Shown here piece by piece: positions 10,977-48,555 of a stretch of 64,000 nucleotides of DNA. The stretch comes from Syntrophales bacterium (GTDB taxonomy: Bacteria; Desulfobacterota; Syntrophia; Syntrophales; UBA2210). The first letter of the stretch is position 1. The number at the start of each line of letters is the position of its first letter. Both the position numbers and the translations under genes were made by a program. The stretch is taken from the NCBI GenBank assembly GCA_023228425.1, contig JALOBE010000005.1, forward strand, positions 30,986 through 94,985. The letters are read 5' to 3'. The notes under the pieces were generated by a model. It made no database searches. It worked only from the letters and a program-made list of their open reading frames with translations, and was not told the DNA's origin.

Positions 10977-11130
10977 GAACGGCTTCGTAAAAAATTGCGG
11001 GACAAGGTGCGCACATCACGAAAAAGAGACACACTTGCGGAGCGTTGCAGTGGCGAGGAATGCAGCCTGATCAGGCTCTGACTTTTTGCATCGCCGTAAT
11101 GGTTGATATCCATAACGAACAAGGCCCGTC
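10977..11130. repeat. MITE-like repeat, family 1 (divergent copy), in the only large gap of the lipid cluster
   Basis: Starts GAACGGCTTCGTAAAAA and ends ACGAACAAGGCCCGTC. The interior aligns in blocks with the 56995-57148 copy in reverse orientation. Length is 154 bp, as for other copies. Confidence 0.6.
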
Positions 11131-11152
11131 GAAAACATAACGGTGAAACGGC

Positions 11153-12560: not shown

Positions 12561-12561
12561 C

Positions 12562-13869: not shown

Positions 13870-13881
13870 TCGGGGAAGTCT

Positions 13882-15619: not shown

Positions 15620-15631
15620 GATGGTTGAATC

Positions 15632-16306
15632 GTGTTTAAAAGAGGAGGAAGAGAACGGTCGATGATCGGCATGAGCGTAGTTTCCCAAGGGGCGGAGGAT
15701 GTACTGGGCTATCCGGAGCTGGTTTATCTTGGCGTGTGTGAGTATCCCCTGGCCATGGTTGATCGTATCACGGGCTTCATCAATGGCAAACGTCCGGTAC
15801 TAAAGGGGCTTAAAAATGTTTCCATCAATGAGCCCCATTTCAGGGGTCACTTTAAGAATTATCCCGTAATGCCGGGAAACTTGATAGCTGAATGCCTGGG
15901 GCAACTCAGCGGCTACCTACACTCTTTTCTAAAGTTTTCTGAAATTCTTGAGAAGGAAAGGGGGCTTTCTGTGGATAATGGGACAATTCTTTTTCCGGCC
16001 ATTCTGCAGAATCTGAAAAAGGTAAGTTGCTTACGAACTTCATACCGAGGCGGCCTTGCATCGCACAATGTCAAATATCGTCGGCCGGTCTTTCCTGGTG
16101 ATCAGCTATTGCTTCAGACTCAGCTGGTTCTCCAGGATCGGGGGTTCTTTCATCACACTGTTGAAGCGAATGTCGGTGGTATGCTCGTCGCTTCTGGGAC
16201 AATAGTCAATTTTTTCATCACGCCTCCAGAAGTGTCCAGTGCGGAAAGTGAGATCAATATCTATGGGATATTCAAGTCATTATCGGATATTAAGGATTCA
16301 TCGTAG
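15632..16306 (+). CDS. FabZ/FabA-like hot-dog dehydratase with an insertion
   Basis: HFRGHFKNYPVMPGNLIAECLGQ matches the FabZ HFxxxPxMPGvL motif. At 224 aa it is longer than canonical FabZ. Confidence 0.75.
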   Translation: MFKRGGRERSMIGMSVVSQGAEDVLGYPELVYLGVCEYPLAMVDRITGFINGKRPVLKGLKNVSINEPHFRGHFKNYPVMPGNLIAECLGQLSGYLHSFLKFSEILEKERGLSVDNGTILFPAILQNLKKVSCLRTSYRGGLASHNVKYRRPVFPGDQLLLQTQLVLQDRGFFHHTVEANVGGMLVASGTIVNFFITPPEVSSAESEINIYGIFKSLSDIKDSS

Positions 16307-17684: not shown

Positions 17685-18400
17685 TATCCGTGAAGGAGGT
17701 TCAAAAATTACATTTTCGCCATTTTGTTTACGGGAAGGATCGGGTGAGAGCCCTTGCAGTCAATGATGTTCATCTTTGGACGATCCTTCTCAGCGGACTA
17801 AACGAGATGGAAAAATATGAAGGACTTCTGTCAAATAAGGACAAAAGGGAGAGCAATTTGATTGGCAGCGAGAGAAATCGTCGGCTTTTTGTCGCTGGGA
17901 GGGGTGTTCTGCGGACCCTGTTAGGCGAGTACATTCATGTAAGGCCGCAAAACGTTGAGATAGAAATAGATATCCGTGGCCATCAAAAGCTCTCTGAGTC
18001 TGTGAATAACGACGCTCTGTCCTTCAATCTTACACACTCAGGTAACATAATCCTTTGCGCCTTTGCGCGACAAGTCTCGCTCGGTGTTGATGTTCAGTAT
18101 GCCTACAAGGTGCCGGTTTGTGCCGACGCAGTGTTATCACGAGATGAAATACGACTTATCGCCCAGACGCCGGAATCGTTACAGACTGAAATGTTTCTGA
18201 GAATATGGACTCTGAAGGAGGCCTTTTTAAAAGCAACATCCCGAGGGCTTGAAGCCATCGATAGCGTTTCGGTTGTGCGGGGATGGAATTCGTCGACTCT
18301 GACAATCGAGACAAGGGGAACCCAAGCCTTCAGGGAATTTGAACTCTTCACATTCATACCCGGACTGAATTATTTTGCAACAGTGGTGGCAGGTTGGTGA
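17678..18400 (+). CDS. 4'-phosphopantetheinyl transferase (Sfp type)
   Basis: FNLTHSG, GVDV and WTLKEAFLKATSRGL motifs. The GTG start overlaps the preceding stop. Confidence 0.8.
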   Translation: MVISVKEVQKLHFRHFVYGKDRVRALAVNDVHLWTILLSGLNEMEKYEGLLSNKDKRESNLIGSERNRRLFVAGRGVLRTLLGEYIHVRPQNVEIEIDIRGHQKLSESVNNDALSFNLTHSGNIILCAFARQVSLGVDVQYAYKVPVCADAVLSRDEIRLIAQTPESLQTEMFLRIWTLKEAFLKATSRGLEAIDSVSVVRGWNSSTLTIETRGTQAFREFELFTFIPGLNYFATVVAGW

Positions 18401-18487
18401 AGCACTGAAAATGATCTTGGAATTGTTACAAGACAGGAGTTTGGCGTCATGATTTAATCAACAGAGAACAGAAGAGAGGATGGGACT

Positions 18488-19252
18488 ATGAAAACCATAG
18501 AAGGACTTGAAGGAAAGGTAGCTCTGATTACCGGTAGTTCCCGAGGAATAGGTGCTGCCATTGCGGATAAATTCTCAATCCATGGGGCCGACGTGGTTAT
18601 CCATCATCGCAGCGGCCGGGGCAAGGGTGCCAGCATGGCAAAAGCAGCAACTCAACGAATACGCGATCGAGGAGGAGTAGCTGAAGAATACATCGCCGAC
18701 ATATCAGTTGAGCGGGAAGTAGATGGCATGTTTAGCTTTGTGGCGAAACGTTTCGGCAAGGTGGACATACTTGTTCTCAATGCTGCAAATGCGGTGTTCA
18801 AGGAATTTAAAATCATGACCACAAGAGACTGGGATGTCCTCATAAACACCAATGTGATGGGAAATATCAACTGTGTCAGGAGGGCACTACCTCTTATGTG
18901 TGAAGGAGGAAATATCGTTTTTATCTCTAGCATGGGGAGTCGAATTCCAATGAAACGATATCCTCTTGGGCCCATGAAGGCTGCTCTTGAAAGCTTTGTC
19001 CGGCTTTGGGCGCTCGAATTCTTCCCACGAAAAATACGTGTTAATGCCATTTGTGGCGGTCTTGCCAATACTGACAGTATTCGTGCGGTAGGTCCGCTTT
19101 TATCCTCTTCAGCAATGTTACATCACGAGTTTCTTGTTCAGCCTGAGGAGATTGCCTCGGTTGCTGTGTTCCTTTGTTCGGCGGATGCTGTAGCTGTCAC
19201 AGGTGAAATTATCACCGTCGACAAGGGGCAATCGTTTGCATCATACCAATGA
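18488..19252 (+). CDS. SDR-family oxidoreductase (FabL/FabG-like; possible enoyl or ketoacyl reductase)
   Basis: ALITGSSRGIGAAIA, NAAN, and SSMGS...RYPLGPMKAALE, which resembles the FabL Y-x6-K region but is one residue shorter. Confidence 0.75.
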   Translation: MKTIEGLEGKVALITGSSRGIGAAIADKFSIHGADVVIHHRSGRGKGASMAKAATQRIRDRGGVAEEYIADISVEREVDGMFSFVAKRFGKVDILVLNAANAVFKEFKIMTTRDWDVLINTNVMGNINCVRRALPLMCEGGNIVFISSMGSRIPMKRYPLGPMKAALESFVRLWALEFFPRKIRVNAICGGLANTDSIRAVGPLLSSSAMLHHEFLVQPEEIASVAVFLCSADAVAVTGEIITVDKGQSFASYQ

Positions 19253-19287
19253 TAGGCCACTGTTTCTCCAGTAATGGTCCGGTGAGA

Positions 19288-28335: not shown

Positions 28336-28653
28336 ACAGATAATCCGGGGGCATTTTTCGAAAACCGCCGATAACCTTGCGTGAGGACGGGGTATGGAGA
28401 CGCTGGGGTGTACAGATTCAAAACAACTGACCGATGGGGAGGCGGTATGTATTCGAAGCATGAAACCGGCGACATTCCTGCGACGGTTTCAGCGCCATAT
28501 AGAAACATCCGACTGGGATGAGCAGATTGCCAGTGCCGGTTCCTTGTTTGACAGGATCTGCCTGGTTGCGGTTATCCTGTCGGGCATCGGCATCGTTCCC
28601 GTCATCATTGCCGTCCTCACCACGTAACCTCCTGCTTTCTTCCGAGTCTTACC

Positions 28654-29706
28654 ATGAGAAGAATCCTGCACATCGACATGGACGCCTTCTTTGCCGCTGT
28701 GGAAGAGAAGCGAAATCCCGCGCTGAAGGGGAAACCCGTTGTCATCGGCGGCCGGGGCGATCCGACCAGGCGGGGTGTTGTTTCCACAGCCGACTATGAA
28801 GCCAGGAAATATGGTATTCATTCGGGGATGCCGCTGAGAACCGCATTCAAGCTCTGTCCCTCGGCGATTTTTCTTCCTGTAGATTGCGAGGCCTATGCCG
28901 CCGTTTCCCGTCGATTCAAAAAGGTGCTGGTCGGTGTCACGCCGATAATGGAGGATGTCGGTATTGATGAAGCCTTTCTGGATATTTCGGCTCTGCCGGA
29001 CTCCAACGAAGCCATCGCCGCCGCTATCAAGGCTGGAATTTATGACGCGACGGGACTGACCTGTTCCATCGGTATCGCCCCGAACAAGCTCCTGGCAAAA
29101 ATCGCATCAGACATGCGGAAGCCCGATGGTCTTACCATTCTTACCGACAACGATATAAAACGCGGGTTATGGCCCCTGCCGATCAGAAAATTACACGGGA
29201 TCGGACCCAAAACGGAAGAGAACCTGAAAGCGCTGAACGTTGAAACCATCGGGCAGCTGGCACAATTCTCTCTTGAGACACTGGTCGGGCGATTCGGCCA
29301 TTTCTACGGACATTACCTTCATGACGCGGCGAGAGGCATCGACGACAGACCTGTTGTAACGCACCGGGAACCAAAATCATTCAGTCGCGAGGAAACCTTT
29401 CAGGAAGATGTGAGAAACTGGCAGGCCATCGCCAGGACCATCGCGGAGCAGACAAAGGAGGTCGTTTCCGATCTCGTCGGGCAGGGCTACGGAGCAAGAA
29501 CCGTGACAGTGAAAATCCGCTACAGTGACTTCCGGACGATAACGAGAAGCTGCTCAGTTTCTGAAAGTGTCAGAAAAGAAGATGACATACGACGCATGGC
29601 CTTTTCCTGTTTGAAGCGGGTCGATCTCGAGGGGAAGAAGGTCCGGCTGGTCGGCGTCAGGGTCGGCAACATCAAAACCTGTGAACCCCGGGGCAGCACC
29701 CGTTAA
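28654..29706 (+). CDS. dinB: DNA polymerase IV
   Basis: MRRILHIDMDAFFAAVEEKRNPALKGKPVVIGG and the rest of the Y-family core. Confidence 0.95.
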   Translation: MRRILHIDMDAFFAAVEEKRNPALKGKPVVIGGRGDPTRRGVVSTADYEARKYGIHSGMPLRTAFKLCPSAIFLPVDCEAYAAVSRRFKKVLVGVTPIMEDVGIDEAFLDISALPDSNEAIAAAIKAGIYDATGLTCSIGIAPNKLLAKIASDMRKPDGLTILTDNDIKRGLWPLPIRKLHGIGPKTEENLKALNVETIGQLAQFSLETLVGRFGHFYGHYLHDAARGIDDRPVVTHREPKSFSREETFQEDVRNWQAIARTIAEQTKEVVSDLVGQGYGARTVTVKIRYSDFRTITRSCSVSESVRKEDDIRRMAFSCLKRVDLEGKKVRLVGVRVGNIKTCEPRGSTR

Positions 29707-29777: not shown

Positions 29778-31115
29778 TCAATCCATATGTTCGAGGACTC
29801 TCTGTGAGGGCTGTTTTCCCAGGAGGACCATGCCGAAGTGTTCGTATTTTTCGCCTGTTCTCGGATCCGCGTCATGCCATCGCGCGAGAAACTCCCGCTC
29901 CCTCAGCCATGTGCGCCGGATCGAAGCGGGATCTTCAAACAGGAGAACATCCTTGTCAAGACCGATGGCTATGACGTAATGGCCGTGGTCCCATTCACGG
30001 CGCCACTCGTCGAGTGTCATGTACCGGTCCGCCCAGGCCTGCAGAAGGACGATCACCGGGGTTCCCATCCTGACATAATCCTTGACCTGGTTCAGCGACC
30101 AGTGCGTCCCGTATTTCACTTCGAAGCCGAAACGCCCGGCGACGCTGACAAGAGCCTGTGGAGGCGTTCCCTCTTTTTCGGATGTTTCCAGGGCTTCCAT
30201 CAGCGCGTCTCCCCGGATATCCGTTCCGTAGTAATGCATCACCGTCTGCAAGGCCTGGGCACCGCAGTCGTAGTCATAGGTTTGCCTGCCACCGTGCAGA
30301 TCGATCAGTGTCGGCTTCTGCGATTCGTGAATTGACCGGAGTGTCTGCACGAGGGATTCGGCAAATATCCGGCGAAGCCGGTTGATTTTCGCCACGTCGG
30401 GAGTGCCGTCCCTGTTCTTGAACAGGCCCTCACAGGTTTCCTGGATAAAGGCGGGTGCACGGGCTCCGACACGCTTTGCGGCATTGACTGAATGGGCGGC
30501 GCACACGTGGCCGTGAACACGGTAATATTCCGAACCGTTCACAGTGACCAGGACATCGGGAAGGCGCGTGCGCAGTTCGGCGGCATAGGTTTCCACGATA
30601 CCATCGGGGCAGTAGTGAAGCGGCTTTTCATCGTCGTCGGTATGCTGAAAATTCATGATGTCGACCTGGTTTTCGACGATCCCGCGAGCGGGAACCGTGG
30701 AATGACCGTCGAACAGAAGTTCAGCGCCGGCGGAAATTGTCTGCTCGATGCTCCGGTGAAAGGGCTTCAGGTACTTTTCCGACCAGGCGGCACGCATGGA
30801 TGGTGAGGGTTCACAGCCTTGCCGGTAAACAGGGCGTCCGAAGGCATCCAGCAGCGGGACGCTTTCTTCGATGCGGGCCGGGTCACGGTTCGCATCGAGG
30901 AGGATGCTGCAATAGGGGAAAACGATATGATGGTTCGCGAGGATATCCCGAAAATCGTAGAGCCATTGGGTATGCCAGTCGACATTTTTCACGAGGTCGG
31001 AGAGCTCGACAGACAGGTCATCGAGGGCAATTTCAGGAGGTATCACGATGCCGCTGTGGGGCACCACCACCAGGATATCCGAGCCGGTCGTGACGGTTGT
31101 CGCCCTACTTTTCAC
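29778..31115 (-). CDS. Fusion protein: N-formylglutamate amidohydrolase (FGase)-like domain plus C39-like papain-fold cysteine peptidase domain
   Basis: N half: VVVPHSGIVIPPE, LLDANRDP, LFDGHST (FGase-type motifs). C half: YDYDCGAQALQTVMHYYG (Cys) and DHGHYVIAIGLD (His), typical of Peptidase_C39_2. Confidence 0.65.
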   Translation of the reverse strand: MKSRATTVTTGSDILVVVPHSGIVIPPEIALDDLSVELSDLVKNVDWHTQWLYDFRDILANHHIVFPYCSILLDANRDPARIEESVPLLDAFGRPVYRQGCEPSPSMRAAWSEKYLKPFHRSIEQTISAGAELLFDGHSTVPARGIVENQVDIMNFQHTDDDEKPLHYCPDGIVETYAAELRTRLPDVLVTVNGSEYYRVHGHVCAAHSVNAAKRVGARAPAFIQETCEGLFKNRDGTPDVAKINRLRRIFAESLVQTLRSIHESQKPTLIDLHGGRQTYDYDCGAQALQTVMHYYGTDIRGDALMEALETSEKEGTPPQALVSVAGRFGFEVKYGTHWSLNQVKDYVRMGTPVIVLLQAWADRYMTLDEWRREWDHGHYVIAIGLDKDVLLFEDPASIRRTWLREREFLARWHDADPRTGEKYEHFGMVLLGKQPSQRVLEHMD

Positions 31116-31590
31116 AGGCCATGATCTCCTTGCGAAAGACGAGTTTGTTGTCTTTGTCGCGATAGAAGTCTTTTAAAACGGCCGCCAGAGAGTAGCCGTG
31201 CTTTCGGTACAGGGCCCTCGCGGCTTCGTAGGGGGCCGTGGACGATGTCTCGATATAGACCGTTCCCCCTCCCTGGTCGGTGATGGAAGCCTCCATGAAT
31301 GCCAGCAGTTTCGAGCCGATGCCGCGCCTTGCCGTGCCGGGATCAACGGCAATCCAGTAGAGATCGAAGGAGTGCGCCGTCATGGGAACCGGTCCGAAGC
31401 AGATATAGCCGAAAAGGGTCCTGTCCGTACCGTAAAAGCCAAAACCGCGGTACCCGCTCGCGGCTCCTTTTTGAAGAATTTCATCAACCAGTTCCATGGC
31501 CACACGGTGTTCTTCCCTGCTGAACACGCCCGTGGCCTGAAGAAGCAGGCTTACAGCGTTTCTGTCGGAAGGTGTAAGGGGTCGAATCAC
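31105..31590 (-). CDS. GNAT-family N-acetyltransferase
   Basis: Motif A RRGIGSKLLAFME. 161 aa. The GTG start overlaps the upstream stop (GTGA). Confidence 0.8.
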   Translation of the reverse strand: MIRPLTPSDRNAVSLLLQATGVFSREEHRVAMELVDEILQKGAASGYRGFGFYGTDRTLFGYICFGPVPMTAHSFDLYWIAVDPGTARRGIGSKLLAFMEASITDQGGGTVYIETSSTAPYEAARALYRKHGYSLAAVLKDFYRDKDNKLVFRKEIMACEK

Positions 31591-32591
31591 GGCTTGGACG
31601 TCCTGTTCAGGGCTGATGCAAGTATCCTTCCGATCATCTCCGCATAAGTGCCTCCCGTCTGCCCGAAGGCCGCGGCGAAGCCCGCGTCGGGGCTGAGGCA
31701 GGGGTTGGCGTTGATCTCCAGAACGGAAATCTCTCCCTTCGAGGTCAGCCGCATGTCTACCCGTCCATAGTCCCGAAGGTGAAAAAGTCGGAAGCAGAGA
31801 AGGGCCGTTTCCTCGAGGTCGTGTGCCAGGTCATCGTCGAGGTCGGCGGGGAATACTCGGGGACTGTTGACGTATTCCGGGGAATCCACATCCCACTTGG
31901 CGGCGTACCCCAGGATCGGGTACAGGCCTTCCGGGAAGGATGAATAATCGATTTCGGCCACAGGAAGTGGTGTCGGTGAAGGATTGCAGATGACGGACAG
32001 GTTGAATTCCCGTCCGTTTATATATTCTTCCACAATACATTCCCCGAATCGGGCTTGAGAGAGGGGCAGGAACTTCGCCAGCGCTTCAGGGTCTTCACAG
32101 ATAGATTCCTGGTCGATTCCGATGCCGGCGTCTTCGAAGCGGGGTTTCACGATGACGGGGAATCTCAGGGTGTGGGGATTCCAGGGCGAATGTCCGTCGT
32201 ATACCAGGAACCCGGGTGTGTTTATGCCCGACGCGGCCATGACCAGTTTCGCCATCCCCTTGTCGGTGCTGTACATGAGCGCTTGAGACGATGACCCGGT
32301 GAATGGAATGTCCATCAGTTCGAAAACAGCAGCGGGGTGGGGCCCCAGGGAGGCATCTTCATCGACGGTCTCGCACAGGTTGAAAATAACACCGGCATCG
32401 GTTTCCCTGAAGCGAGCCAGAAAGGCATGGAGGTCCCGGGTGAAGGGAACTCTGGAAAAAGGATAGCCCAAGTGACCGAGGGCCTCCTCCACGGCCTCCA
32501 ACTGAACAATCACATCCAGGGATGCCGCGTAGCCGGGAGCTCCTTCGCTGGCAGGAACATTGTGAACCAGGGCGATCAGTGGTTTCTTCAT
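31587..32591 (-). CDS. ATP-grasp ligase, D-alanine--D-alanine ligase-like (copy B)
   Basis: Ddl-like layout: FPVIVKPRFEDAGIGI, VEEYINGREFNLSV, DYGRVDMRL...VLEINANP. Confidence 0.8.
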   Translation of the reverse strand: MKKPLIALVHNVPASEGAPGYAASLDVIVQLEAVEEALGHLGYPFSRVPFTRDLHAFLARFRETDAGVIFNLCETVDEDASLGPHPAAVFELMDIPFTGSSSQALMYSTDKGMAKLVMAASGINTPGFLVYDGHSPWNPHTLRFPVIVKPRFEDAGIGIDQESICEDPEALAKFLPLSQARFGECIVEEYINGREFNLSVICNPSPTPLPVAEIDYSSFPEGLYPILGYAAKWDVDSPEYVNSPRVFPADLDDDLAHDLEETALLCFRLFHLRDYGRVDMRLTSKGEISVLEINANPCLSPDAGFAAAFGQTGGTYAEMIGRILASALNRTSKP

Positions 32592-33586
32592 AGTGCCATG
32601 GAGGCCGGCGTGTCTTCCATACGGGTCAGCGCGGCGTCAAGTATCGCCCTGATGAGGGACCTGTAGGGCATTCCCGTTCGGGAAGCGAGAATGGACAGGT
32701 CCGAATTTACCGGGTGAAGCCCGGCGAGAGGGTTCAACTCGATGACATTCGGAATACCTTCTTCATCTTCCCGGATATCGACTCGTCCGGCGTCACGGCA
32801 ACCGAGGCCGCGCCATGCCGCGAGGGCCGTTTCCGCCGCTTTCAGGGCACCCCGATCCCGGACGAGACGATAGATCACCCGTTCTTTGTAGTGTTCCTTG
32901 TTCGCGAAGGAATATACTCCCTTTTCAGCGTTTCCCCGAAGCAGGACCTCAAGAACGCCGAGACACGCCGCCCTTTTGCCCGTTCCCAGGATTCCCACGG
33001 TAAACTCACGGCCCGGAAGATAGGTTTCAACCAGGGCCGGTTGCTTGAAATCGCCGATGATCCTGGCACAATGGGCGACAAGATCGGCACGGTTCGTTAC
33101 CCGCGAGGATTCCCGGATACCCTTGCTCGTGCCTTCAGCAACGGGTTTTACGAAGAGTGGCCAGGGGAGGGAGATATGCTCCATATCTTCCGTATCCTTC
33201 ACGACCGCAAAGTCCGGTGTAGGGATATGCAGGTCCCGCAGCACGTGCTTCGCCATTCCCTTGTGGAGCGAAAGGGCCAGCGTCAGAGGATCGGAGAAGG
33301 TGTAGGGAATGTCATAGGCCTCCAGCAGTGCAGGCACCTGAGATTCCCTTCCGAACCCCTTGAGTCCTTCGGCAATGTTGAAAACCAGGTCCCATCGGTC
33401 ACCGGTTGCAAGGCGGGCCGTCAGTGCCCGGACGTTACCGATGGCGATCGGCTCATGTCCCAGCTCGTGGAGCGCTCCCGCTATCGCGTCGATGGTTTCC
33501 TTCGAGTCAAACTCGGCGACGGCTTCCCGGCTGTAGCCGGTGCTGAGGTAGTCGTCGATACGGTCGTAGGTCATGCCGATTCTCAT
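32588..33586 (-). CDS. ATP-grasp ligase, D-alanine--D-alanine ligase-like (copy A)
   Basis: PLFVKPVAEGTSKGI, VETYLPGREFTVGI, DAGRVDIR...VIELNPLAG. The stop overlaps the next start (ATGA). Confidence 0.8.
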   Translation of the reverse strand: MRIGMTYDRIDDYLSTGYSREAVAEFDSKETIDAIAGALHELGHEPIAIGNVRALTARLATGDRWDLVFNIAEGLKGFGRESQVPALLEAYDIPYTFSDPLTLALSLHKGMAKHVLRDLHIPTPDFAVVKDTEDMEHISLPWPLFVKPVAEGTSKGIRESSRVTNRADLVAHCARIIGDFKQPALVETYLPGREFTVGILGTGKRAACLGVLEVLLRGNAEKGVYSFANKEHYKERVIYRLVRDRGALKAAETALAAWRGLGCRDAGRVDIREDEEGIPNVIELNPLAGLHPVNSDLSILASRTGMPYRSLIRAILDAALTRMEDTPASMAL

Positions 33587-33588
33587 GG

Positions 33589-34926
33589 CTAATGAACTCC
33601 TTCATCAATCAGCGCGTGGGAGAGCTCGGCATTGTCTCGGTAACGGTACATTTTCCCTTCGAAATTCTTCAGCAGAACCGTGTCTCCGTCATGTCCCATG
33701 ACACATTCGGGCATTACCGGAATCTTCCCCCCGCCCCCGGGGGTGTCGATAACGTAGAGAGGAACGGCAAAGCCTGTCGTATATCCCCGCAGGTCCTTCA
33801 TTATCGAGAGTCCCGTCGACAGGGATGTCCGGAAATGTCCTGAACCGACGATGGGGTCGCACTGAAAAAGATAGTAGGGCCGGACCCTCATGCGTAGCAG
33901 CCCGTGAAAAAGCTCCATGAGCGTGGAGGAGCGGTCGTTTATTCCGGAAAGCAACACCGTCTGGCTCTGGAGGGGAATGCCGGCGTCGGCAAGTTTTTCA
34001 CAGGCCCGGCGTACTTCCTCCGTCAACTCCTCGGGGTGAGTGAAGTGCAGGTTTACCCACAGAGGATGGTATCGCTTCAGCATGCGCGTCAGGGGCTCCG
34101 TGATCCGTTGAGGAAGCACTACGGGCGCCTTCGACCCGATGCGCAGTATTTCCACGTGGGGAATGCGGCGGAGCCGGGTCAGGAGCCACTCAAGCCGGTC
34201 ATCGGAGAGCGTCAGGGGGTCTCCCCCGGAAATGACCACGTCCCGGATCTGCCTGTTTGATTCAATGTATTCGATGCCCGCCCGCCACCGTTCAACAGTT
34301 CCCCCCCGTCCCGCTCCGGGACGCCCCACCATGCGGGAACGCGTACAATAGCGACAGTAGGTGGAGCAGAAATCGGAGACCAGGAAGAGGACCCTGTCGG
34401 GATAGCGGTGAACAAGGCCCGGTACGGGCGTGTGGGCGTCTTCGCTGAGGGGATCCTGCAGTTCACCCGGTGAATGGATCATCTCTGCGGTGACGGGAAC
34501 AACGGTTCGCCGAAGGGGGTGCGAGGGATCGTCGGGATCGAGAAGACTCGCGTAATAGGGGGTAATCAGAAACGGAAAGCCTCCCGTTCCGAGGGAAAGA
34601 GCCGCCCGTTCATCATGGCTGAGGTTCAGAATTTTTTCCAGATCAGGGCCTGTTTCAAAGGCATTCCGTATCTGCCAGCGCCAGTCGTTCCACTGGGCGT
34701 CGGTGATCTCCGAAAAGAAACGTCCCCGAAACGCGGCGGTTCGGGAGCCCATGGACTCCCTTGCAGCCATTGTGTTTCCGGGGACTGTTCCGCTGTGGCT
34801 TGCCGGGGCCGTTCCCGCCTCCTGTCGTAGGGGAGGCTCCACCTCTTCCATTTCCATACTTTCCTGCTGCATCGTCATCACTTCTCCATTCCATCTGTAA
34901 TGCCGGACAGGCACTGATCCTTTCAC
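33589..34926 (-). CDS. kamA: Lysine 2,3-aminomutase (radical SAM, KamA family)
   Basis: WNDWRWQIRN, the CSTYCRYCTRSR cluster motif, PYYLFQCD and VIDTPGGGGKIPV. Collinear with Clostridium LAM, as I recall its sequence. The N-terminal ~70 aa may not be translated. Confidence 0.85.
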   Translation of the reverse strand: MKGSVPVRHYRWNGEVMTMQQESMEMEEVEPPLRQEAGTAPASHSGTVPGNTMAARESMGSRTAAFRGRFFSEITDAQWNDWRWQIRNAFETGPDLEKILNLSHDERAALSLGTGGFPFLITPYYASLLDPDDPSHPLRRTVVPVTAEMIHSPGELQDPLSEDAHTPVPGLVHRYPDRVLFLVSDFCSTYCRYCTRSRMVGRPGAGRGGTVERWRAGIEYIESNRQIRDVVISGGDPLTLSDDRLEWLLTRLRRIPHVEILRIGSKAPVVLPQRITEPLTRMLKRYHPLWVNLHFTHPEELTEEVRRACEKLADAGIPLQSQTVLLSGINDRSSTLMELFHGLLRMRVRPYYLFQCDPIVGSGHFRTSLSTGLSIMKDLRGYTTGFAVPLYVIDTPGGGGKIPVMPECVMGHDGDTVLLKNFEGKMYRYRDNAELSHALIDEGVH

Positions 34927-34954
34927 AGATCAGGCTTCCGTTACCTGTAAATTA

Positions 34955-34969
34955 GCAATCCATATGCCA
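34955..34969 (-). promoter_or_regulatory. Sigma-54 (-24/-12) promoter of the kamA operon
   Basis: The minus strand reads TGGCATATGGATTGC (consensus TGGCAC-N5-TTGC) and ends about 29 nt upstream of the first possible start (GTG 34926). Confidence 0.75.
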
Positions 34970-35023: not shown

Positions 35024-35158
35024 GGAACGCAAAGTTCCGCTTTTCCGTCCGGGGAATGGCGACGGCAGGTTTTATTGCGCTTAAGCTATTGAAATTATGG
35101 AGGATAATGAATAGGAACAGAAAGTTCCTGTTTTGTCATGACCGGAACCACGAGTTCC
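35024..35158. promoter_or_regulatory. Three GGAAC-N5-GTTCC palindromes, candidate enhancer (UAS) sites
   Basis: GGAACGCAAAGTTCC (35024-38), GGAACAGAAAGTTCC (35114-28), GGAACCACGAGTTCC (35144-58). The last two are 30 bp apart centre to centre. All lie 60-200 bp upstream of the sigma-54 promoter. Confidence 0.6.
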
Positions 35159-35205: not shown

Positions 35206-36645
35206 TCAAGGGTTTTTCCCCGAAGGCCGAGGGCCGGTACCGGGAGGTTTGAAATATTCCTTCCTGAAACCGTGTCGTTTCATCAGCTTCGAGATCTGAC
35301 GCGTGGTGATCCCGGCACGGCGGGCCGTTTCTTTGATGCTTCCGCCTTCTTCCGTCAGAAGATCTTGCAGATAGCGTTTCTCGACGGCTTCAACGGCCCT
35401 GCGCCTCGTGTCGGCAAGCGTCGTGAAGGTGTCAACCGTGAAGGTCGGCGACGGGCCGTCGGTATCGAATAGTTCTCCCGGAAAGCTCTCCGGCGTGAGA
35501 ACCGGTGATGTTTCGATGATGTGAGCACGTTCAATGAGATTCTGCAATTCACGAATGTTTCCCGGCCAGGAGTATTCCTGAAAGGCCGCGAGTACGTCAG
35601 GGTGCACATCATGAATGACCTTTGTGGAGAACTTGTTGAGCTTCTTCAGGAAAAAGGAAACGAGAAGAGGAATGTCCTCCCGCCGATCCCGCAGGGGAGG
35701 CATTTCTATAGGGAAGACGTTCAGGCGGTAATAAAGGTCTCTTCTGAATTGACCTTCATTGATGAGCTTCCGGAGGTCTATGTTCGTTGCCGCTATGACC
35801 CGGACATCGGCCTCAAGGGCTTCTTCCCCTCCCACACGGCTGAATATGCCGTCCTGCAACACCTGGAGCAGCCTGATCTGGGCGGCAAGGCTGATCGTTC
35901 CAATTTCGTCAAGAAAAACAGTTCCTCCATGGGCAATCTCGAATTTGCCCATCTGTCGCCGGACGGCCCCCGTGAAAGCTCCCCGCTCGTGACCGAACAG
36001 TTCACTTTCAAGAAGACTTTCGGGAATGGCGCCGCAGTGGACACTGATGAACTGCCCCTTTTTCCGGTTGCTGTGCCGATGAATCAGCTTGGCCAGAACG
36101 CCTTTCCCCGTGCCCGTTTCACCGGAGATCAAAACGGTGCTGTTCGTTACCGCCACGGATCGGACTTTGTCGAGAAGTTTCATCACGGCGGGACTCCTGG
36201 TCTGGATCAGCTCGAGGGCGTCTCCTTCCCAGAACTGGCTTTGCATGTAATCGAGGGTCGACTGGACGATTATTGACTCGTAGAGGCTTTCGGTGACGTA
36301 TTTCACCTCGTCGGTATTCAGGGGGTAGGTCAAATAGTTGCTTGCACCTTCCTTGACGACGAGCACTGCTTCCCGGATCATTGCCTGGGGAGCCATGACG
36401 ATTATTTCAATATCGGGATAGGCCACCCAGTAGAGCTGCATGGCTCCCTTGTAATTACCATCGGGACTGGACTTCCGCAACATGTCAAGATCTATGAACA
36501 CAAGATCGTGACGATGGCGCTGGAGAAGATGAAGCGCCGCAGCCTGGTCGGACGCATGGTCGATCCTGGTTTGCGGACGGGAACGGAAGGAGGCCGCAAT
36601 CTGTTGATAGGCATCCTGATCTGCCAGAACGAGAAATGATTTCAT
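35206..36645 (-). CDS. Sigma-54-dependent transcriptional activator with an atypical receiver domain (NtrC family)
   Basis: AAA+ core (GETGTGKGVLAKLIH, GAFTGA, DEIG), C-terminal Fis-type HTH, N-terminal CheY-like fold (DLVFIDLDM). Confidence 0.9.
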   Translation of the reverse strand: MKSFLVLADQDAYQQIAASFRSRPQTRIDHASDQAAALHLLQRHRHDLVFIDLDMLRKSSPDGNYKGAMQLYWVAYPDIEIIVMAPQAMIREAVLVVKEGASNYLTYPLNTDEVKYVTESLYESIIVQSTLDYMQSQFWEGDALELIQTRSPAVMKLLDKVRSVAVTNSTVLISGETGTGKGVLAKLIHRHSNRKKGQFISVHCGAIPESLLESELFGHERGAFTGAVRRQMGKFEIAHGGTVFLDEIGTISLAAQIRLLQVLQDGIFSRVGGEEALEADVRVIAATNIDLRKLINEGQFRRDLYYRLNVFPIEMPPLRDRREDIPLLVSFFLKKLNKFSTKVIHDVHPDVLAAFQEYSWPGNIRELQNLIERAHIIETSPVLTPESFPGELFDTDGPSPTFTVDTFTTLADTRRRAVEAVEKRYLQDLLTEEGGSIKETARRAGITTRQISKLMKRHGFRKEYFKPPGTGPRPSGKNP

Positions 36646-36826: not shown

Positions 36827-38410
36827 TCAACCCTTGCGTCCCGCCCCCGCTTTCTTATTTTCCGGCTTTGAAAGGTTCCGCACGCGTCTCCCGTAAGGGA
36901 TGCCCAATTTTTTCAGTCTGCTTCGAAGCGTGCTGGGGTTGATTTTGAGTAACGCGGCCGCGCCTTCGGGTCCATGAATAACACCGTTTGTCATCTGAAG
37001 AGCCCGGCGGATGTAGTCGCCGGTCATTTGCTCGAGCCCCTGCATGCCCTCCGGCGCTTTCCGGAAATGTTCCGAAGTGGTACCATCTCTCCTGCTTCTG
37101 TCCAGAAAACGGAATTGCAGTGGAGCCTCGCGGTTCAAAATCATTTCCCGCTCCACAACATTTTCCAGTTCCCGCACATTGCCGGGCCACTCATAATTCA
37201 TGAGGCGGTCGATAACACCCGGTGCAAGTTCCGGCTTTTTTGACAATTTCAATTGCTGAACCTTGATATCTATGAAATTGTTTACGAATGCCGGTATATC
37301 CACCTTTCTCTCCCGCAAGGGCGGAATGTGGATGGGAAACATGTTTATTCGGAACCACAGGTCTTCCCTGAATAGGCCCTTCCTCACCATCTCCTCGAGA
37401 TTGCGGTGGGTAGCCGCGATGACCCGGATGTTCACGGAGATCGATTTCGAGCCTCCGACACGCTCAATGGTTTTGTCTTCGAGAACACGCAGTAACCGTG
37501 TCTGCGCATGGGCGGGCAAGTCTCCGATCTCGTCCAGGAAAATCGTTCCCTGGTCCGCCCGCTCGAACCGTCCGTACTTTTGCTCGACGGCGCCGGTGAA
37601 GGCGCCCCTTTCGTAGCCGAACAGTTCGCTGTCGATGAGCGTATCAGGGATGGCACCGCTATTTACAGCGATGAAAGGACCTTTGCGTCGGGGGGACAAA
37701 TTATGAATCGCGCCGGCCATGACACCCTTTCCCACCCCCGTTTCTCCGAGAAGCAGCACGGGACTTTCCAGGGGTGCGATAACGCTGATCATGTCCATGA
37801 CATTCTTCAGGCCGAAATCGGCGCCGATAATCTCATCGGGACACAGGTTCAGCAGATCCTTCTGAAGATACAGATTTTCTTCCCTGAGCAGCTCTTTAAG
37901 CCGGAGTGTCTCCTCGTGTTCGAGAGTGTTGGAAAGAGCGACGGCAAAGGCCTCGTTCAAAGGAGCAAGCCAACGCATATGCTGTTGTGTGTACCGGTCC
38001 GGACCCTTTGCCACAAGGGCGAGGGTGCCGAGCCTCTTTTTTTCAATGATCAGGCGCATAAAAATGATTGACGCATCGGACAGGTCCAGGGATGTCGTGA
38101 GTTGGTTATTTATGGGATCGTCTTTGGACCTGTTGATGATCCTGATATGCGGCATGTCGGGATTATCCATGGCCGCCCTGACTTCCGGTGTCAGCGGGGT
38201 CACCGTGCTGAGACGTCTGCTCGTAGAAGCCGTTGCAAGGGCTATGGTGTGTATTACACCGAGATCCTGTTCGTACAGTAACAGTAACAGCCTGTCCAGG
38301 GGGAAGGAGGTCTGGACGAGGTAGTCGAAGGACCATCGCAAGACCGTTGTAATGTTCAGACTTCCGCAAATGCGCTTTACCATCTCTCGAAAAAACTCAT
38401 GCTCACCCAT
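36827..38410 (-). CDS. Sigma-54-dependent transcriptional activator with an N-terminal GAF-like sensor domain
   Basis: GETGVGKGVMAGAIH, ERGAFTGA, FLDEIGDL and a C-terminal HTH. The N-terminal ~190 aa is GAF-like. Confidence 0.9.
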   Translation of the reverse strand: MGEHEFFREMVKRICGSLNITTVLRWSFDYLVQTSFPLDRLLLLLYEQDLGVIHTIALATASTSRRLSTVTPLTPEVRAAMDNPDMPHIRIINRSKDDPINNQLTTSLDLSDASIIFMRLIIEKKRLGTLALVAKGPDRYTQQHMRWLAPLNEAFAVALSNTLEHEETLRLKELLREENLYLQKDLLNLCPDEIIGADFGLKNVMDMISVIAPLESPVLLLGETGVGKGVMAGAIHNLSPRRKGPFIAVNSGAIPDTLIDSELFGYERGAFTGAVEQKYGRFERADQGTIFLDEIGDLPAHAQTRLLRVLEDKTIERVGGSKSISVNIRVIAATHRNLEEMVRKGLFREDLWFRINMFPIHIPPLRERKVDIPAFVNNFIDIKVQQLKLSKKPELAPGVIDRLMNYEWPGNVRELENVVEREMILNREAPLQFRFLDRSRRDGTTSEHFRKAPEGMQGLEQMTGDYIRRALQMTNGVIHGPEGAAALLKINPSTLRSRLKKLGIPYGRRVRNLSKPENKKAGAGRKG

Positions 38411-43342: not shown

Positions 43343-45502
43343 ATGGAATATTCGATCCCGAACAATCTTGATGCCATTTTTGCCCCGCAGTCGGTGGTGG
43401 TGGTCGGCGCTTCGACCACACCGGGGAAGGTGGGACATGACATCTTCGCCAATATCCTTCAGGGGGGCTTTACCGGAACCCTGTATCCGGTCAATCCCAC
43501 GGCCAAGTCCATTCTCAGCGTTCGAGCCTATCCAGCCATTCGGGAAATCCCCGATATGGTCGATCTTGCCATAATCGTCCTGTCTCCTCAGGGTACGCTG
43601 AAGGCGGTCGAAGAATCTGTGGAGCACGGCATCAAGGGCATCGTCATCGTATCCGCCGGTTTTCGCGAGGTGGGCGATGAGGGACGAAAGTTGGAGGACC
43701 GCATCGTGTCCATCTGTCGTGAAGCGGGAATCCGGCTTATCGGACCGAACTGCCTCGGAGTCATCAATCCCATCCCTGCCGTTCGCCTCAATGCCAGCTT
43801 TTCCTCTCACATGCCCGCCACGGGCAATATATCGTTTATATCCCAGAGTGGCGCCTTGTGTACCGCCGTTCTTGACTTTGCCGCCGACCGTGGGTTTGGT
43901 TTCTCTAAATTCGTTTCTATCGGCAACAAGGCCGATGTGGACGAACTGGATATTCTACGCTACCTTCATACCGATCCCGATACGGCGGTTATCATGCTCT
44001 ACGTGGAGGAACTGCGTAGAGGTACGGAGTTCATAGAAGTTGTTAAAGAGATCACCTCCGGAAGTCGTCCGACCCCGGTGCTTGTCGTCAAATCCGGCCG
44101 TACAGGGGCGGGGGCACAGGCCGCGAGTTCCCACACAGGGGCCCTGGCGGGTACTGAAACGGTTTACGAGGCGATCTTTAAGCAATCAGGGGTAATTCGC
44201 GCCGATACGGTGGACGAATTATTTGATTTCGCGAATGTTTTTTCCTACAAGCAAGAAAGTGCCCTGGGCAAGTTGCGGCGCAAGCTGCCGAACGGGAACC
44301 GTGTGGCCATTGTCACCAATGCCGGCGGGCCGGGAATCATTGCTACCGATGTGACCGTTTCGTCGGAGTTGGAACTTGCCGCATTTCAGGACGAAACCAT
44401 ACGGGAGCTGGCCAGGCACCTGCCCCGGACCGCGAATATCCACAATCCCGTGGACGTTATCGGAGATGCTACCCAGGACCGCTACGAAAGCGCCCTGCGG
44501 ACAGTCATCAACGATCCCGGGGTGGACGGAGCGCTGGTCATTCTAACCCCGCAGTCCATGACCAACGCTCTGGGAACGGCGGAAGCAGTGGTTCGTGTGG
44601 CACGACGGACCGGGAAGCCCATTCTCTGCTGTTTCATGGGAATCATCGATGTTTCCCCGGGAGTCAAGTTTCTTCAGGAACATGGCTATCCCGTATACAA
44701 GTTTCCTGAAAACACCGCAAAGGCATTCAGTGCCCTTTACAGATATGCCCACTGGCTCAATCGCCCCCAGTTACCGGAGCTCACCCTTGATCATGATCGG
44801 GAGAGGGCGCGCACAATAATCGAACGATGCGCCGCCCGGGGCCGAACCTATCTCGGAGAACTGGATGGCCTGGAGCTGCTTCAGTGCTATGGCTTTCAAA
44901 CCCTCCCGACACAATTGGCCGGAAATGAACAGGAAGCGGCGGACATTGCCGAAACCATAGGTTTCCCCGTGGTCATGAAGATCGTTTCCGACCAGATCAT
45001 ACACAAGTCAGACGCGGGCGGCGTTATGCTGAATCTCAACAGCAGGGAGGAAGCCGGGGATGCCTTCCGCGGGATTATAGCCAACGCCGGCAGATATGAT
45101 CCGGAAGCGCTGATTCAGGGCGTTCTGGTCCAGAAAATGGCTCCTGCCGGAGAAGAGGTAATCATAGGCATGAAGCGTAACGCCGTGGGTCCCCTGCTCA
45201 TGTTCGGTCTGGGAGGTGTTTTTGTTGAAGTTCTGGGGGATGTTGTTTTTCGGCTCGCGCCCATTGCCCGGAACGAGGCGCATCGCATGATCCGGGAGAT
45301 CCGGGGCTGGAAGTTGCTCCAGGGCTTCCGTGGCCGTCCCGTTGCAGATACCGATACCCTGGAACGGTTGATGATGTGTCTCTCCGACCTGGCGACGCAT
45401 CATCCTGAAATTGATGAGATGGATATCAATCCGCTGCTGCTGCACGCTCAGGGTCACGGGGCGACCGTGGCCGATTGTCGTATCATCTTGCGCTTCGACT
45501 GA
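43343..45502 (+). CDS. ADP-forming acetyl/acyl-CoA synthetase family protein (CoA-binding plus ATP-grasp)
   Basis: VVVVGASTTPGKVGH CoA-binding N terminus, succinyl-CoA-synthetase-like middle, ATP-grasp C terminus (FPVVMKIVSDQIIHKSDAGGV). Confidence 0.85.
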   Translation: MEYSIPNNLDAIFAPQSVVVVGASTTPGKVGHDIFANILQGGFTGTLYPVNPTAKSILSVRAYPAIREIPDMVDLAIIVLSPQGTLKAVEESVEHGIKGIVIVSAGFREVGDEGRKLEDRIVSICREAGIRLIGPNCLGVINPIPAVRLNASFSSHMPATGNISFISQSGALCTAVLDFAADRGFGFSKFVSIGNKADVDELDILRYLHTDPDTAVIMLYVEELRRGTEFIEVVKEITSGSRPTPVLVVKSGRTGAGAQAASSHTGALAGTETVYEAIFKQSGVIRADTVDELFDFANVFSYKQESALGKLRRKLPNGNRVAIVTNAGGPGIIATDVTVSSELELAAFQDETIRELARHLPRTANIHNPVDVIGDATQDRYESALRTVINDPGVDGALVILTPQSMTNALGTAEAVVRVARRTGKPILCCFMGIIDVSPGVKFLQEHGYPVYKFPENTAKAFSALYRYAHWLNRPQLPELTLDHDRERARTIIERCAARGRTYLGELDGLELLQCYGFQTLPTQLAGNEQEAADIAETIGFPVVMKIVSDQIIHKSDAGGVMLNLNSREEAGDAFRGIIANAGRYDPEALIQGVLVQKMAPAGEEVIIGMKRNAVGPLLMFGLGGVFVEVLGDVVFRLAPIARNEAHRMIREIRGWKLLQGFRGRPVADTDTLERLMMCLSDLATHHPEIDEMDINPLLLHAQGHGATVADCRIILRFD

Positions 45503-46674: not shown

Positions 46675-48555
46675 TCAGACCTTGTCTCTGAAGGTCATTT
46701 TCAATTCACTGACACCCGCGATAGTTCTTTTGTCAATATCGAACCCTCCTTTTTCAAAAACATGCAACATGGGAAGGTTGTCTGAAAAAACCTCCGCGGT
46801 GAACCCGATAAGTCCCTGGCGCTTGGCCAGGTAGGTCAGATACGAGAGCAACTCCGTGCCGATGCCCTTGTTTTGATAGTTATCTCCGACGGTAAAGGCG
46901 ACCTCCGCTGTGTGTGTATCAGGATCAATAAAAAATCGACCGACACCGACAATCACTTCTCTGCCCGGTTCTCCGAGAACGGCAAGTATTGCCGCTTCCC
47001 TGGAATAATCAATCACGACAAATTCCTGGAGCTGTTCATGAGGTATATTAGTCCGGACAGTCATGAATCTCCGGCTGAGGCTGTTTTCCGACAGGGAATA
47101 AATAAAGTCCTTGAGCAGGTCTTCGTCACTGATTTTTATTGGCCTGAAACGGACTTCAAGACCTGACTTCGTCGTCCTGCGCGTTTCAAGTTCTGCGGGA
47201 TAGATGCCCTTTTCTCCAGGAATGAATGCCTGGTCTCTGTAAATCAAGCCGGCTTTTTTGGCTTCGGAAACGAGCCACGGCCTGAACTTCGGATGGGCGA
47301 TGGCGATGAGGTCCATTGCCCGTTCCCGAATGCTTTTCCCGTGGAGGTAGGCTATTCCGTACTCAGTGACAACATAATGGACATCTCCCCGTATGAGGGT
47401 GGCGCTGGCTCCTTCTCCCAGAAACGGTACAATCCGTGACAGTGTTTCTTGCCTTGCCGTGGATTTGAGGGTCAGGATGGTTTTCCCTCTTTTTGACAGA
47501 GGAATTCCCCTCATGAAATCCGCCTGCCCCCCCACACCGCTGTGGGATGTCTTGCCGATGGATTCAGCCGTTGCCTGGCCGGTAAGATCAATCTCCAGCG
47601 CGCTGTTGATAGCCGCCATGTTGCTGTGTTGGGAGATGATGAGGGGATTGTTGGTGTAGTCGATAGGACGGAACTCAATGGACGGGTTATCATGAAGATA
47701 CCGATAGGTGTCACGCTTGCCCATACAGAATGTCGCAACGGTTTTGCCCCTGTCTATGCTTTTGCGCGAATTGTCGATAACATTGCGTTTCATAAGTTCC
47801 ACGATTCCATCACTGATAAGCTCCGTATGAACGCCCAGATGTTTTTTCTCTAAAAGATTGGCGAGGATGGCGTTGGGAATGCTTCCGTAGCCCACCTGGA
47901 TCGTATCACCGTCCTCAATGAGACGTGCTACGTTTCTCCCGATTCTCTGAGCGATCTCGCTGTCGGCCTGAGGCACATACTCGAGCAGTTCCTCGTCGTA
48001 GGCTACGGCGAAATCAATGTCATCGATGTGAATAAACGTGTCACCGTGTATTCGAGGCATATGGGAATTAATCTGTGCGATTACAACGGGCGCGTTCCTT
48101 ACGGCGGACATTACAATGTCCACGCTTATTCCGAGACTCATGAAGCCGTGTATATCCGGCGGGGACGTCTGTATAAGGGCGACATCAATCTTGACAAGTC
48201 CCTCGCTCATGAGTTGGGGGACCTGGAAGAGAAAAATGGGGGTATAGTCCGCCAGTCCCGTATTGACGGCAGTACGTGTACTCTCGCCGATAAAGAAGGA
48301 ATTGTGGCGGAAGTTTTGCTTGTATTTTTCCTGCGCGTAGGGGGCGACACCCAGCGTTCTTACGTGGATCACTTCCGCGTCGACAAAAGCCTTGGGCTTC
48401 GAGTCGACATAACTGATCAGGCTCTGGACAAGATACTGAGGCTCGGCACAGGCGGAGCCTATGAAAATGGTGTTACCTCTGTGAATATGGCTGAAAATTT
48501 TATCAATACTGTCAAATTTTTCAGGGCACGTATTACACCAATGGTCCAATGGCAT
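46675..48555 (-). CDS. Acetyl-CoA hydrolase/transferase family protein fused to a C-terminal GNAT domain
   Basis: N-terminal ~430 aa is CoA-transferase-like (GSIPNAILANL, GVGGQADF). The C terminus has GNAT motif A (QNKGIGTELLSYL). Confidence 0.8.
   Translation of the reverse strand: MPLDHWCNTCPEKFDSIDKIFSHIHRGNTIFIGSACAEPQYLVQSLISYVDSKPKAFVDAEVIHVRTLGVAPYAQEKYKQNFRHNSFFIGESTRTAVNTGLADYTPIFLFQVPQLMSEGLVKIDVALIQTSPPDIHGFMSLGISVDIVMSAVRNAPVVIAQINSHMPRIHGDTFIHIDDIDFAVAYDEELLEYVPQADSEIAQRIGRNVARLIEDGDTIQVGYGSIPNAILANLLEKKHLGVHTELISDGIVELMKRNVIDNSRKSIDRGKTVATFCMGKRDTYRYLHDNPSIEFRPIDYTNNPLIISQHSNMAAINSALEIDLTGQATAESIGKTSHSGVGGQADFMRGIPLSKRGKTILTLKSTARQETLSRIVPFLGEGASATLIRGDVHYVVTEYGIAYLHGKSIRERAMDLIAIAHPKFRPWLVSEAKKAGLIYRDQAFIPGEKGIYPAELETRRTTKSGLEVRFRPIKISDEDLLKDFIYSLSENSLSRRFMTVRTNIPHEQLQEFVVIDYSREAAILAVLGEPGREVIVGVGRFFIDPDTHTAEVAFTVGDNYQNKGIGTELLSYLTYLAKRQGLIGFTAEVFSDNLPMLHVFEKGGFDIDKRTIAGVSELKMTFRDKV

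Follow-up and report, generated by a model that had tools for sequence, protein, structure and literature searches.

A conserved four-gene cassette that places a lysine 2,3-aminomutase beside two Ddl-like ATP-grasp ligases: a candidate pathway to an amide-linked β-lysine derivative

β-Lysine is known in bacteria and archaea as a fermentation intermediate, as the acetylated osmolyte of methanogens, as a modifier of elongation factor P (EF-P) and as a building block of antibiotics. AblA and AblB make up the Nε-acetyl-β-lysine osmolyte pathway of methanogens, to which the kamA-yodP(-yodQ) operon of Bacillus subtilis is related. In EpmAB systems, a paralog of lysine 2,3-aminomutase (LAM) supplies the β-lysine that modifies EF-P, whereas in streptothricin, one of several antibiotics that contain β-lysine, resistance arises by acetylation of this moiety. 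Here we describe an operon from a Syntrophales bacterium (contig JALOBE010000005.1, positions 30,986 to 94,985; the whole 64,000-nucleotide stretch is referred to below as the window, and coordinates are those of the window) that encodes a LAM, two ATP-grasp ligases related to D-alanine–D-alanine ligase (Ddl), a GNAT acetyltransferase and a fused double hydrolase. We consider it about evenly balanced whether the first four of these genes represent an uncharacterized pathway that builds a small amide-linked β-lysine derivative, a pseudo-tripeptide, with reversible N-acetylation.

Like this cassette, the abl genes and B. subtilis kamA-yodP place a LAM with the lysine-binding Asp pair beside a GNAT gene, and the B. 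subtilis operon also has a deacetylase-type gene, as some cassette loci do. The cassette differs from abl in adding two strictly co-conserved ligases, in its 161-residue RimI-like GNAT and in a LAM that scores below the AblA cut-off. PylB and PylC likewise isomerize lysine by radical S-adenosylmethionine (SAM) chemistry and then use a Ddl-like ATP-grasp enzyme to join a second amine through an (iso)peptide bond, but the cassette mutase is a KamA-family enzyme dependent on pyridoxal 5′-phosphate (PLP), there are two ligases and a GNAT, and no PylD or pylT/pylS accompanies them. N-acetylglutaminylglutamine amide (NAGGN) and N-acetylaspartylglutamate (NAAG) resemble the proposed product in combining an acetyl cap with an ATP-grasp-made bond in a small cytoplasmic peptide, and the NAGGN cluster carries a peptidase gene as well; their ligases, however, are of the RimK rather than the Ddl type, and neither system has an aminomutase or a β-amino acid. 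The cassette is an uncharacterized variant of known amino-acid-ligase chemistry built on β-lysine. PMC3543383 cites Pfluger et al. 2003 for the abl pathway, and the Pelobacter genome paper covers ablAB only. We found no paper describing the cassette in the searchable literature, which agrees with an earlier, sequence-only reading of this DNA that did not recognize a characterized pathway; the comparative-genomics survey of amidoligases by Iyer et al. 2009 (Mol Biosyst 5:1636) might mention it.

The operon consists of five tightly packed open reading frames (ORFs) on the minus strand (29778–34926). The first encodes the KamA-family radical SAM/PLP enzyme LAM (33589–34926; 445 residues from a GTG start; Pfam LAM_C and Radical_SAM), followed by the Ddl-like ATP-grasp ligase A (32588–33586; 332 residues; Pfam Dala_Dala_lig_C, 80 bits) and its paralog ligase B (31587–32591; 334 residues; 80.6 bits, with E about 1e-22 for both ligases). 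Next come a small RimI-like GNAT N-acetyltransferase (31105–31590; 161 residues; Acetyltransf_7 and Acetyltransf_1) and a 445-residue fusion (29778–31115) of a domain with the N-formylglutamate-amidohydrolase fold (FGase; 30321–31115; Pfam FGase, residues 13–193) to a C39-like papain-fold cysteine peptidase domain (29778–30320; Peptidase_C39 and C39_2, residues 277–414), hereafter FGase::C39. Pfam therefore bears out every domain that the sequence-only reading had assigned to the five proteins, and its claim that the genes form one unit holds as well, all of the ORFs lying compactly behind a sigma-54 promoter. In 5′ to 3′ order, the junctions are a 2-nt gap (TAG-CC-ATG), ATGA and GTGA overlaps, and an 11-nt overlap; the three overlaps are as previously read, whereas the gap had been counted as 3 nt. 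The start of LAM is ambiguous between GTG at 34926 (445 residues) and ATG at 34872 (427 residues), and the latter is the likely start because it lines up with the starts called in close relatives. Across the operon, a sigma-70 scan returned three promoter-like sites against 2.1 expected and a terminator scan 11 terminator-like sites against 5.4±2.4, several of them being the palindromes described below, so that neither gave a convincing excess. PADLOC defence-system models returned no match. Rfam, applied to the whole window with gathering thresholds, likewise returned none, hence no riboswitch was detected.

LAM, the two ligases and GNAT form a strongly conserved cassette. Using ligase A as the query against one genome for each species, we obtained 565 or more relatives and compared the 80 best loci, in which ligase A is 56–68% identical to that of the window, by tblastn with all window proteins within 8 kb. 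LAM, ligase A, ligase B and GNAT follow one another in the same order and on the same strand in 67 of the 80 loci, most exceptions being contig ends, and both ligases are co-conserved with LAM in 76–77 of them, fixed between the LAM and GNAT genes. Ligase A stands alone in only two loci (L076 and L083), where its neighbors are unrelated and uninformative. Median identity to the window proteins is 60% for LAM, 59% for ligase A, 42% for GNAT and 38% for ligase B, a subgroup of the last being near 50%. The carriers span more than ten phyla and are mostly anaerobic, with many uncultured species among them. In Desulfobacterota they include Syntrophales, Smithella, Desulfobulbales and Desulfobacterales; elsewhere they fall in Acidobacteriota, Planctomycetota, KSB1, Calditrichota, Krumholzibacteriia, Leptospirales, Fibrobacteraceae, and Alpha- and Gammaproteobacteria. 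The carriers also include an isolate, Desulfopila sp. IMCC35006 (L066). The neighborhood is therefore kept in near and distant genomes as far as LAM, the two ligases and GNAT are concerned, but not for FGase::C39: the conserved unit has four genes, not five. Two loci depart from the usual layout. In L060 (5026–10001), LAM, a second ligase-B-like gene and GNAT precede ligase A and ligase B, giving three ligases, and in L086 (595–4333) the GNAT gene sits between those for LAM and ligase A.

The window LAM matches the Clostridium subterminale enzyme (PDB 2A5H) with 447 bits (E=6e-133) and scores 342.4 bits against the KamA family (TIGR00238; cut-off 199.2), retaining the CxxxCxxC motif and the PLP lysine. 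Its QCD and VIDTPGGGGK motifs align to Asp293, Asp330 and Lys337 of 2A5H. In the numbering of that structure, the iron–sulfur ligands Cys125, Cys129 and Cys132, the carboxylate-binding Arg134, the ε-ammonium-binding Asp293 and Asp330, and the PLP-binding Lys337 are invariant in 74 of 74 cassette-linked LAM homologs. The window protein thus has Arg134 and both of the Asp residues that mark a lysine-specific LAM, as had been read from the sequence. Glutamate 2,3-aminomutase reportedly has Lys and Asn in place of Asp293 and Asp330. Among NCBIfam models, AblA (TIGR03820) is the best-scoring equivalog at 471.2 bits, short of its cut-off of 525.4, ahead of glutamate 2,3-aminomutase (TIGR04368; 413.8 bits, cut-off 650), arginine aminomutase (388 bits, cut-off 600) and EpmB (253.5 bits, cut-off 369.3). 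An assignment as glutamate 2,3-aminomutase is rejected by the score and by retention of both Asp residues, and one as EpmB by the score and by the lack of a LysRS-like gene in the operon or among the recurrent neighbors of the 80 loci. By its residues and scores, LAM is a lysine-type KamA-family enzyme outside every curated equivalog. Since it keeps every lysine-binding residue of the Clostridium enzyme, β-lysine is a likely intermediate, and the earlier proposal to that effect is well supported by the lysine-type active site and by the rank of AblA above the other three families. Neighboring lysine-biosynthesis genes lend weak backing to lysine as the precursor: a lysA-like decarboxylase gene occurs in 14 Smithella-type loci (the copy in L017 scores 297.1 bits against the NCBIfam lysA model, cut-off 297.9), and genes for dapF and LL-diaminopimelate aminotransferase directly follow the operon in three contigs that are 84–88% identical to the window (L088–L090).

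The two ligases, which are 30% identical to each other, share their fold and all of the residues of Ddl and VanA that serve ATP, Mg and the acyl phosphate. We numbered their residues by Escherichia coli DdlB, having verified that the sequence is identical to that in 1IOV/2DLN. Lys97, Lys144, Glu180, Glu187, Lys215, Arg255, Asp257, Glu270 and Asn272 are kept in both families; the Mg ligands Asp257, Glu270 and Asn272, together with Arg255 and the ATP-binding Lys and Glu residues, are present in 81 of 81 ligase A sequences and at least 74 of 78 ligase B sequences. The claim of two paralogous, Ddl-like, amide-forming ATP-grasp enzymes is accordingly upheld by the Pfam fold and an intact catalytic apparatus. 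The substrate pocket is another matter. Of the positions considered as D-Ala-binding in Ddl (Glu15, Ser150, Tyr216, Ser281 and Leu282), Ser150 is replaced by Thr in ligase A and Ala in ligase B, Tyr216 by Glu in ligase A (73 of 81) and Trp in ligase B, and Leu282 by Asp in ligase A (81 of 81) and Gly in ligase B, while Gly276 is retained in ligase A and is Cys in ligase B. With these replacements, NCBIfam Ddl scores of 138 (A) and 110 bits (B) against a cut-off of 243, and no cell-wall context around the cassette genes, neither ligase qualifies as a true Ddl. From these patterns, both should be active carboxylate–amine ligases with non-Ddl substrates, and the additional pair of acidic residues that ligase A has in its acceptor pocket would fit a cationic substrate such as (β-)lysine. 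The nearest solved relatives of both are Ddl and VanA; a profile search of the PDB with ligase B returned only these and then L-amino-acid ligase, so that all of the nearest solved relatives are small-molecule ligases. No PylC model is among the 25 best NCBIfam families for the window ligases, and no pyl genes were seen in the neighborhood.

The best PDB match of the GNAT is 2R7H, an uncharacterized "putative D-alanine N-acetyltransferase" (E=4e-33), and an NCBIfam scan returned rimI at 46.6 bits, short of the cut-off of 86.4, along with aminoglycoside or other GNATs; the AblB family gave no NCBIfam match at E≤0.01. A possible link of 2R7H to Dde_3044 was set aside, as the one paper retrieved deals with another gene. 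The commonest accessory gene in the cassette loci adjoins it, either before or after, in 22 of the 80 loci from several phyla. It encodes a protein of ~580 residues whose N-terminal region is weakly GNAT-like and whose C-terminal Hist_deacetyl domain has acetylpolyamine amidohydrolases (APAH; E=2e-71) as its best PDB relatives. This amidohydrolase is not homologous to FGase::C39 and yet occupies the same slot, which suggests that the pathway can optionally include the deacylation of an N-acylated aminoalkyl amine. The remaining neighbors are sporadic: a DMT_6 membrane protein occurs in nine loci, and YgjV with a 403-residue protein in five. The latter are the Desulfopila-type loci (L066, 12189–13976; L062, L063, L074 and L079), in which the cassette continues with the 403-residue protein, for which Pfam and NCBIfam gave no match, and the YgjV inner-membrane protein; the pair may represent extra pathway components or an exporter.

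FGase::C39 is encoded by the fifth gene of the window operon. The FGase domain scores 62.7 bits against a Pfam cut-off of 28.9, and the Peptidase_C39 domain scores 46.6 bits. His20, His138, His203, His208 and Glu226 of the FGase half are invariant in 21 diverse homologs, and so is the catalytic set of the C39 half, Gln278, Cys284, His379 and Asp395, so that both domains look catalytically intact. In an AlphaFold model (predicted local distance difference test score 82), Foldseek matches the FGase half to 2ODF and 2Q7S, and the C39 half to the ComA peptidase domain PEP (TM-score 0.76), PCAT1, the pseudomurein endoisopeptidase PeiR and the amide-forming CtaG. Because the modeled C39 half resembles both peptidases and CtaG, it could either hydrolyze or transfer an amide. 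Folds and catalytic residues of HutG and of the C39 processing domains (ComA, PCAT1 and LahT) are kept in the fusion, but, unlike C39 bacteriocin systems, it is soluble and joined to FGase rather than to an ABC transporter, and no leader-peptide gene was found. Although the NCBI record that is 100% identical to the protein is annotated as N-formylglutamate amidohydrolase, the FGase domain is not a HutG, scoring 51.3 bits against 278.75, and there are no hut genes nearby.

The distribution of FGase::C39 separates it from the cassette. No FGase or C39 homolog lies within 8 kb in the 80 cassette loci, and the cassette is absent from all 87 other FGase::C39 loci that we surveyed, comprising 80 metagenomic loci, 54 of them with at least 1.5 kb of upstream sequence, and seven obtained from exact protein look-ups (47–77% identical), which have unrelated neighborhoods. 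Linkage is confined to the window and L088–L090. The sequence-only reading had treated the fusion as an integral fifth member and had drawn from it the assembly and trimming or turnover of an amide-linked product; these counts (0 of 80 and 0 of 87) do not support that view. No consistent partner emerged in the 54 loci, where the only regularity was a Smithella-type synteny of local extent that comprises a divergent MFS transporter gene and a small gene of the Peptidase_M17_N-like kind, and neither an ABC transporter nor a conserved small ORF lies beside FGase::C39 in the 87 loci. In L006 (10001–11316), the two halves are separate, overlapping genes with no fusion, which supports the idea that the domains work jointly as a unit independent of the cassette. 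Being absent from the cassette loci and normally unlinked, FGase::C39 is a recent, clade-specific addition, co-transcribed by position and with a presumed functional link to the cassette.

Control of the operon by sigma-54, likewise part of the earlier reading, stands for the window but proves to be a trait of some lineages only. The promoter TGGCATatggaTTGCT (34954–34969, minus strand) has −24 TGGCAT and −12 TTGCT elements at the correct spacing (TGGCAT-N5-TTGCT) and is the sole match to the sigma-54 consensus in the 64 kb, where 0.09 would be expected by chance and no second match was found. A sigma-54 enhancer-binding protein is encoded on the same strand, 280 nt upstream of the operon (35206–36645), with a weak receiver domain (Response_reg, 29.9 bits), a Sigma54_activat AAA+ domain (228 bits), AAA_lid_14 and a Fis-type helix–turn–helix (HTH_8). 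Between this gene and LAM lie the only three perfect copies of GGAAC-N5-GTTCC in the window, a number reached in none of 100 shuffles: GGAACcacgaGTTCC (35144–35158), the distal candidate upstream activator site; GGAACagaaaGTTCC (35114–35128), the second; and GGAACgcaaaGTTCC (35024–35038), the proximal one, which precedes the −24 element by about 55 nt. When the region is compared with L088–L090, the half-sites of all three palindromes and the promoter core CTGTGGCAT-N4-GATTGC are invariant, whereas the spacers and surrounding DNA vary, which makes for a good phylogenetic footprint. Palindromes of this type also occur upstream of the LAM gene in L008, L019, L030, L044, L070 and L072, and an ortholog of the activator gene lies directly upstream of LAM in L008–L012, L040, L044, L055 and L088–L090. 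The predicted elements together are those of a sigma-54-dependent operon, and the protein encoded at 35206–36645 is likely its activator. Only 12 of the 80 cassette loci have the activator gene, and 5 of 71 show a strict promoter motif, so that sigma-54 control belongs to some lineages and not to the cassette as such. Directly upstream of the response-regulator-type activator is the gene for another sigma-54 activator (36827–38410, minus strand), which carries a GAF sensor domain, and a 1217-residue multi-PAS/GAF histidine kinase is encoded further away (52097–55750, minus strand).

From these features, we infer a cytoplasmic pathway and an order for its steps. The KamA-type aminomutase would convert L-lysine to β-lysine, as its conserved lysine-binding residues suggest. 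GNAT would then acetylate a single amino group of β-lysine, the ε-amine being the most plausible site by analogy with Nε-acetyl-β-lysine, a step that would block self-reaction once the carboxylate is activated. Ligases A and B would each form one amide bond through an acyl phosphate, yielding a pseudo-tripeptide, and where an accessory amidohydrolase is present (the APAH-type protein of 22 of the 80 loci), it would strip the acetyl group or degrade the product. In the Syntrophales clade, the recruited FGase::C39 may fill this hydrolase slot, FGase removing the acyl group and C39 cleaving or possibly transferring an amide, and the response-regulator-type activator would bind the three GGAAC-N5-GTTCC sites to switch on the −24/−12 promoter. 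Our best guess is that the product serves as a stress solute or compatible solute, or as a reserve rich in nitrogen.

Several observations weigh against this proposal. The substrates of the ligases and the site of acetylation are read from residue patterns only. The GNAT resembles RimI and not AblB, and its target could instead be the α- or β-amine or a peptide N terminus. In about 55 of the 80 cassette loci a hydrolase is missing within 8 kb, so the core chemistry may include neither deprotection nor turnover, and the presence of FGase::C39 in the window, given that it is usually unlinked (0 of 87), could reflect a chance juxtaposition that was later co-transcribed. The cassette may, moreover, already have been predicted in Iyer et al. 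2009.

Among the alternatives, the one that survives best, although we regard it as unlikely, is an antimetabolite or antibiotic with β-lysine in it, either secreted or kept inside the cell. Here the GNAT would provide self-protection and the deacetylase or FGase::C39 would release the active form, a prodrug scheme like those of streptothricin acetylation and phosphinothricin tripeptide. The occurrence of β-lysine in antibiotics and its acetylation in streptothricin resistance fit such a role, as do the pairing of acetyltransferase and deacetylase in 22 of the 80 loci, the small membrane proteins of some (DMT_6 in nine, YgjV in five) and the likeness of the C39-fold domain to CtaG. However, sequence conservation is very high, ligase A and LAM keeping about 60% identity from one phylum to another, and the set of genes is minimal and fixed, which resembles core physiology more than a variable biosynthetic cluster; most loci are without a dedicated exporter, resistance target or tailoring enzymes.

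More doubtful is a polyamide reserve or envelope polymer comparable with cyanophycin or poly-β-lysine, which the ligases would extend by turns, GNAT would cap and the hydrolases would depolymerize. Two paralogous ligases acting on a nitrogen-rich monomer, a peptidase-type hydrolase in the operon and, in the Syntrophales clade, an NtrC-type sigma-54 activator would all be in keeping with it. The ligases are nevertheless small, single-domain and Ddl-like, with nearest relatives that make dipeptides; they have no primer-binding or Mur-ligase-like domain, there is no membrane machinery, and most loci lack a hydrolase.

We think it improbable that β-lysine is instead attached to a protein, as in EF-P, or to a ribosomal peptide that is modified after translation (RiPP), with C39 acting as leader peptidase. 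The precedent of EpmAB, the usual action of C39 domains on double-glycine leader peptides and the likeness of the GNAT to RimI, a protein N-terminal acetyltransferase, are met by a LAM that scores far better as AblA than as EpmB (471 against 253 bits, the latter below its cut-off of 369), by ligases that are Ddl-like and not RimK, LysX or graspetide ligases, by neighborhood clustering that gave no conserved substrate gene or small precursor ORF, and by the position of the C39 gene outside the conserved cassette. The Ddl-like ligases and the lack of a conserved gene for a substrate protein or precursor peptide and of membrane machinery make a small soluble product more plausible than a polymer or the modification of a protein. 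Least probable of all is an ordinary ablAB-type Nε-acetyl-β-lysine operon with ligases and hydrolase as passengers, for although LAM with GNAT is the smallest abl set and LAM matches AblA best among the NCBIfam models, that match stays below its cut-off, the 161-residue RimI-like GNAT has no AblB-family match, and both ligases are held in fixed order between LAM and GNAT and co-conserved with LAM in 76–77 of the 80 loci.

The surroundings of the operon in the window contain several further features. A low-GC block on the plus strand (5819–20993; 45–49% against 55–60% in the flanks) holds a lipid- or polyketide-like cluster with an acyltransferase, a GCV_T protein, an 850-residue double ketosynthase, an ABC ATPase with a MacB/FtsX permease, a 3-hydroxyacyl-CoA dehydrogenase, two short-chain dehydrogenase/reductases or ketoreductases and a LolA-like protein. 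The cluster recalls those of the aryl-polyene type and may be a horizontal acquisition. Convergent to the operon end is an SOS-type pair of genes on the plus strand (27529–29706) for a LexA-like S24 peptidase and DinB/Pol IV. In L088–L090 this pair is replaced by dapF and the LL-diaminopimelate aminotransferase gene, which indicates a local rearrangement. On the far side of the activator genes, an ADP-forming acetyl-CoA synthetase is encoded at 43343–45502, and a similar family recurs near the cassette in about ten Smithella-type loci. An acetyl-CoA hydrolase/transferase at 46675–48555 (minus strand) has the unusual architecture of a fused C-terminal GNAT domain, and a glycyl-radical enzyme resembling pyruvate formate-lyase is encoded at 57168–59573 (minus strand).

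The fixed four-gene cassette, present in several hundred species-level genomes or more, ties the making of β-lysine to a pair of dedicated amide ligases. Its wide distribution, with ~60% identity across distant phyla, points to an abundant undescribed metabolite. We tentatively suggest, with confidence a little short of even, that the cassette makes an undescribed class of β-lysine pseudo-tripeptides by acetyl protection and deprotection in hundreds of anaerobic and mostly uncultured species belonging to more than ten phyla. With so few genes, the pathway could be reconstituted directly. If the proposal is true, syntrophs, sulfate reducers and sediment bacteria would have a new small-molecule pathway of wide distribution, possibly one that yields a new compatible solute or a nitrogen-status metabolite. 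As many of the carriers, including Smithella, Syntrophus and Desulfobulbales, are key organisms in anaerobic digesters and sediments, its product could matter for their stress tolerance or nitrogen handling.

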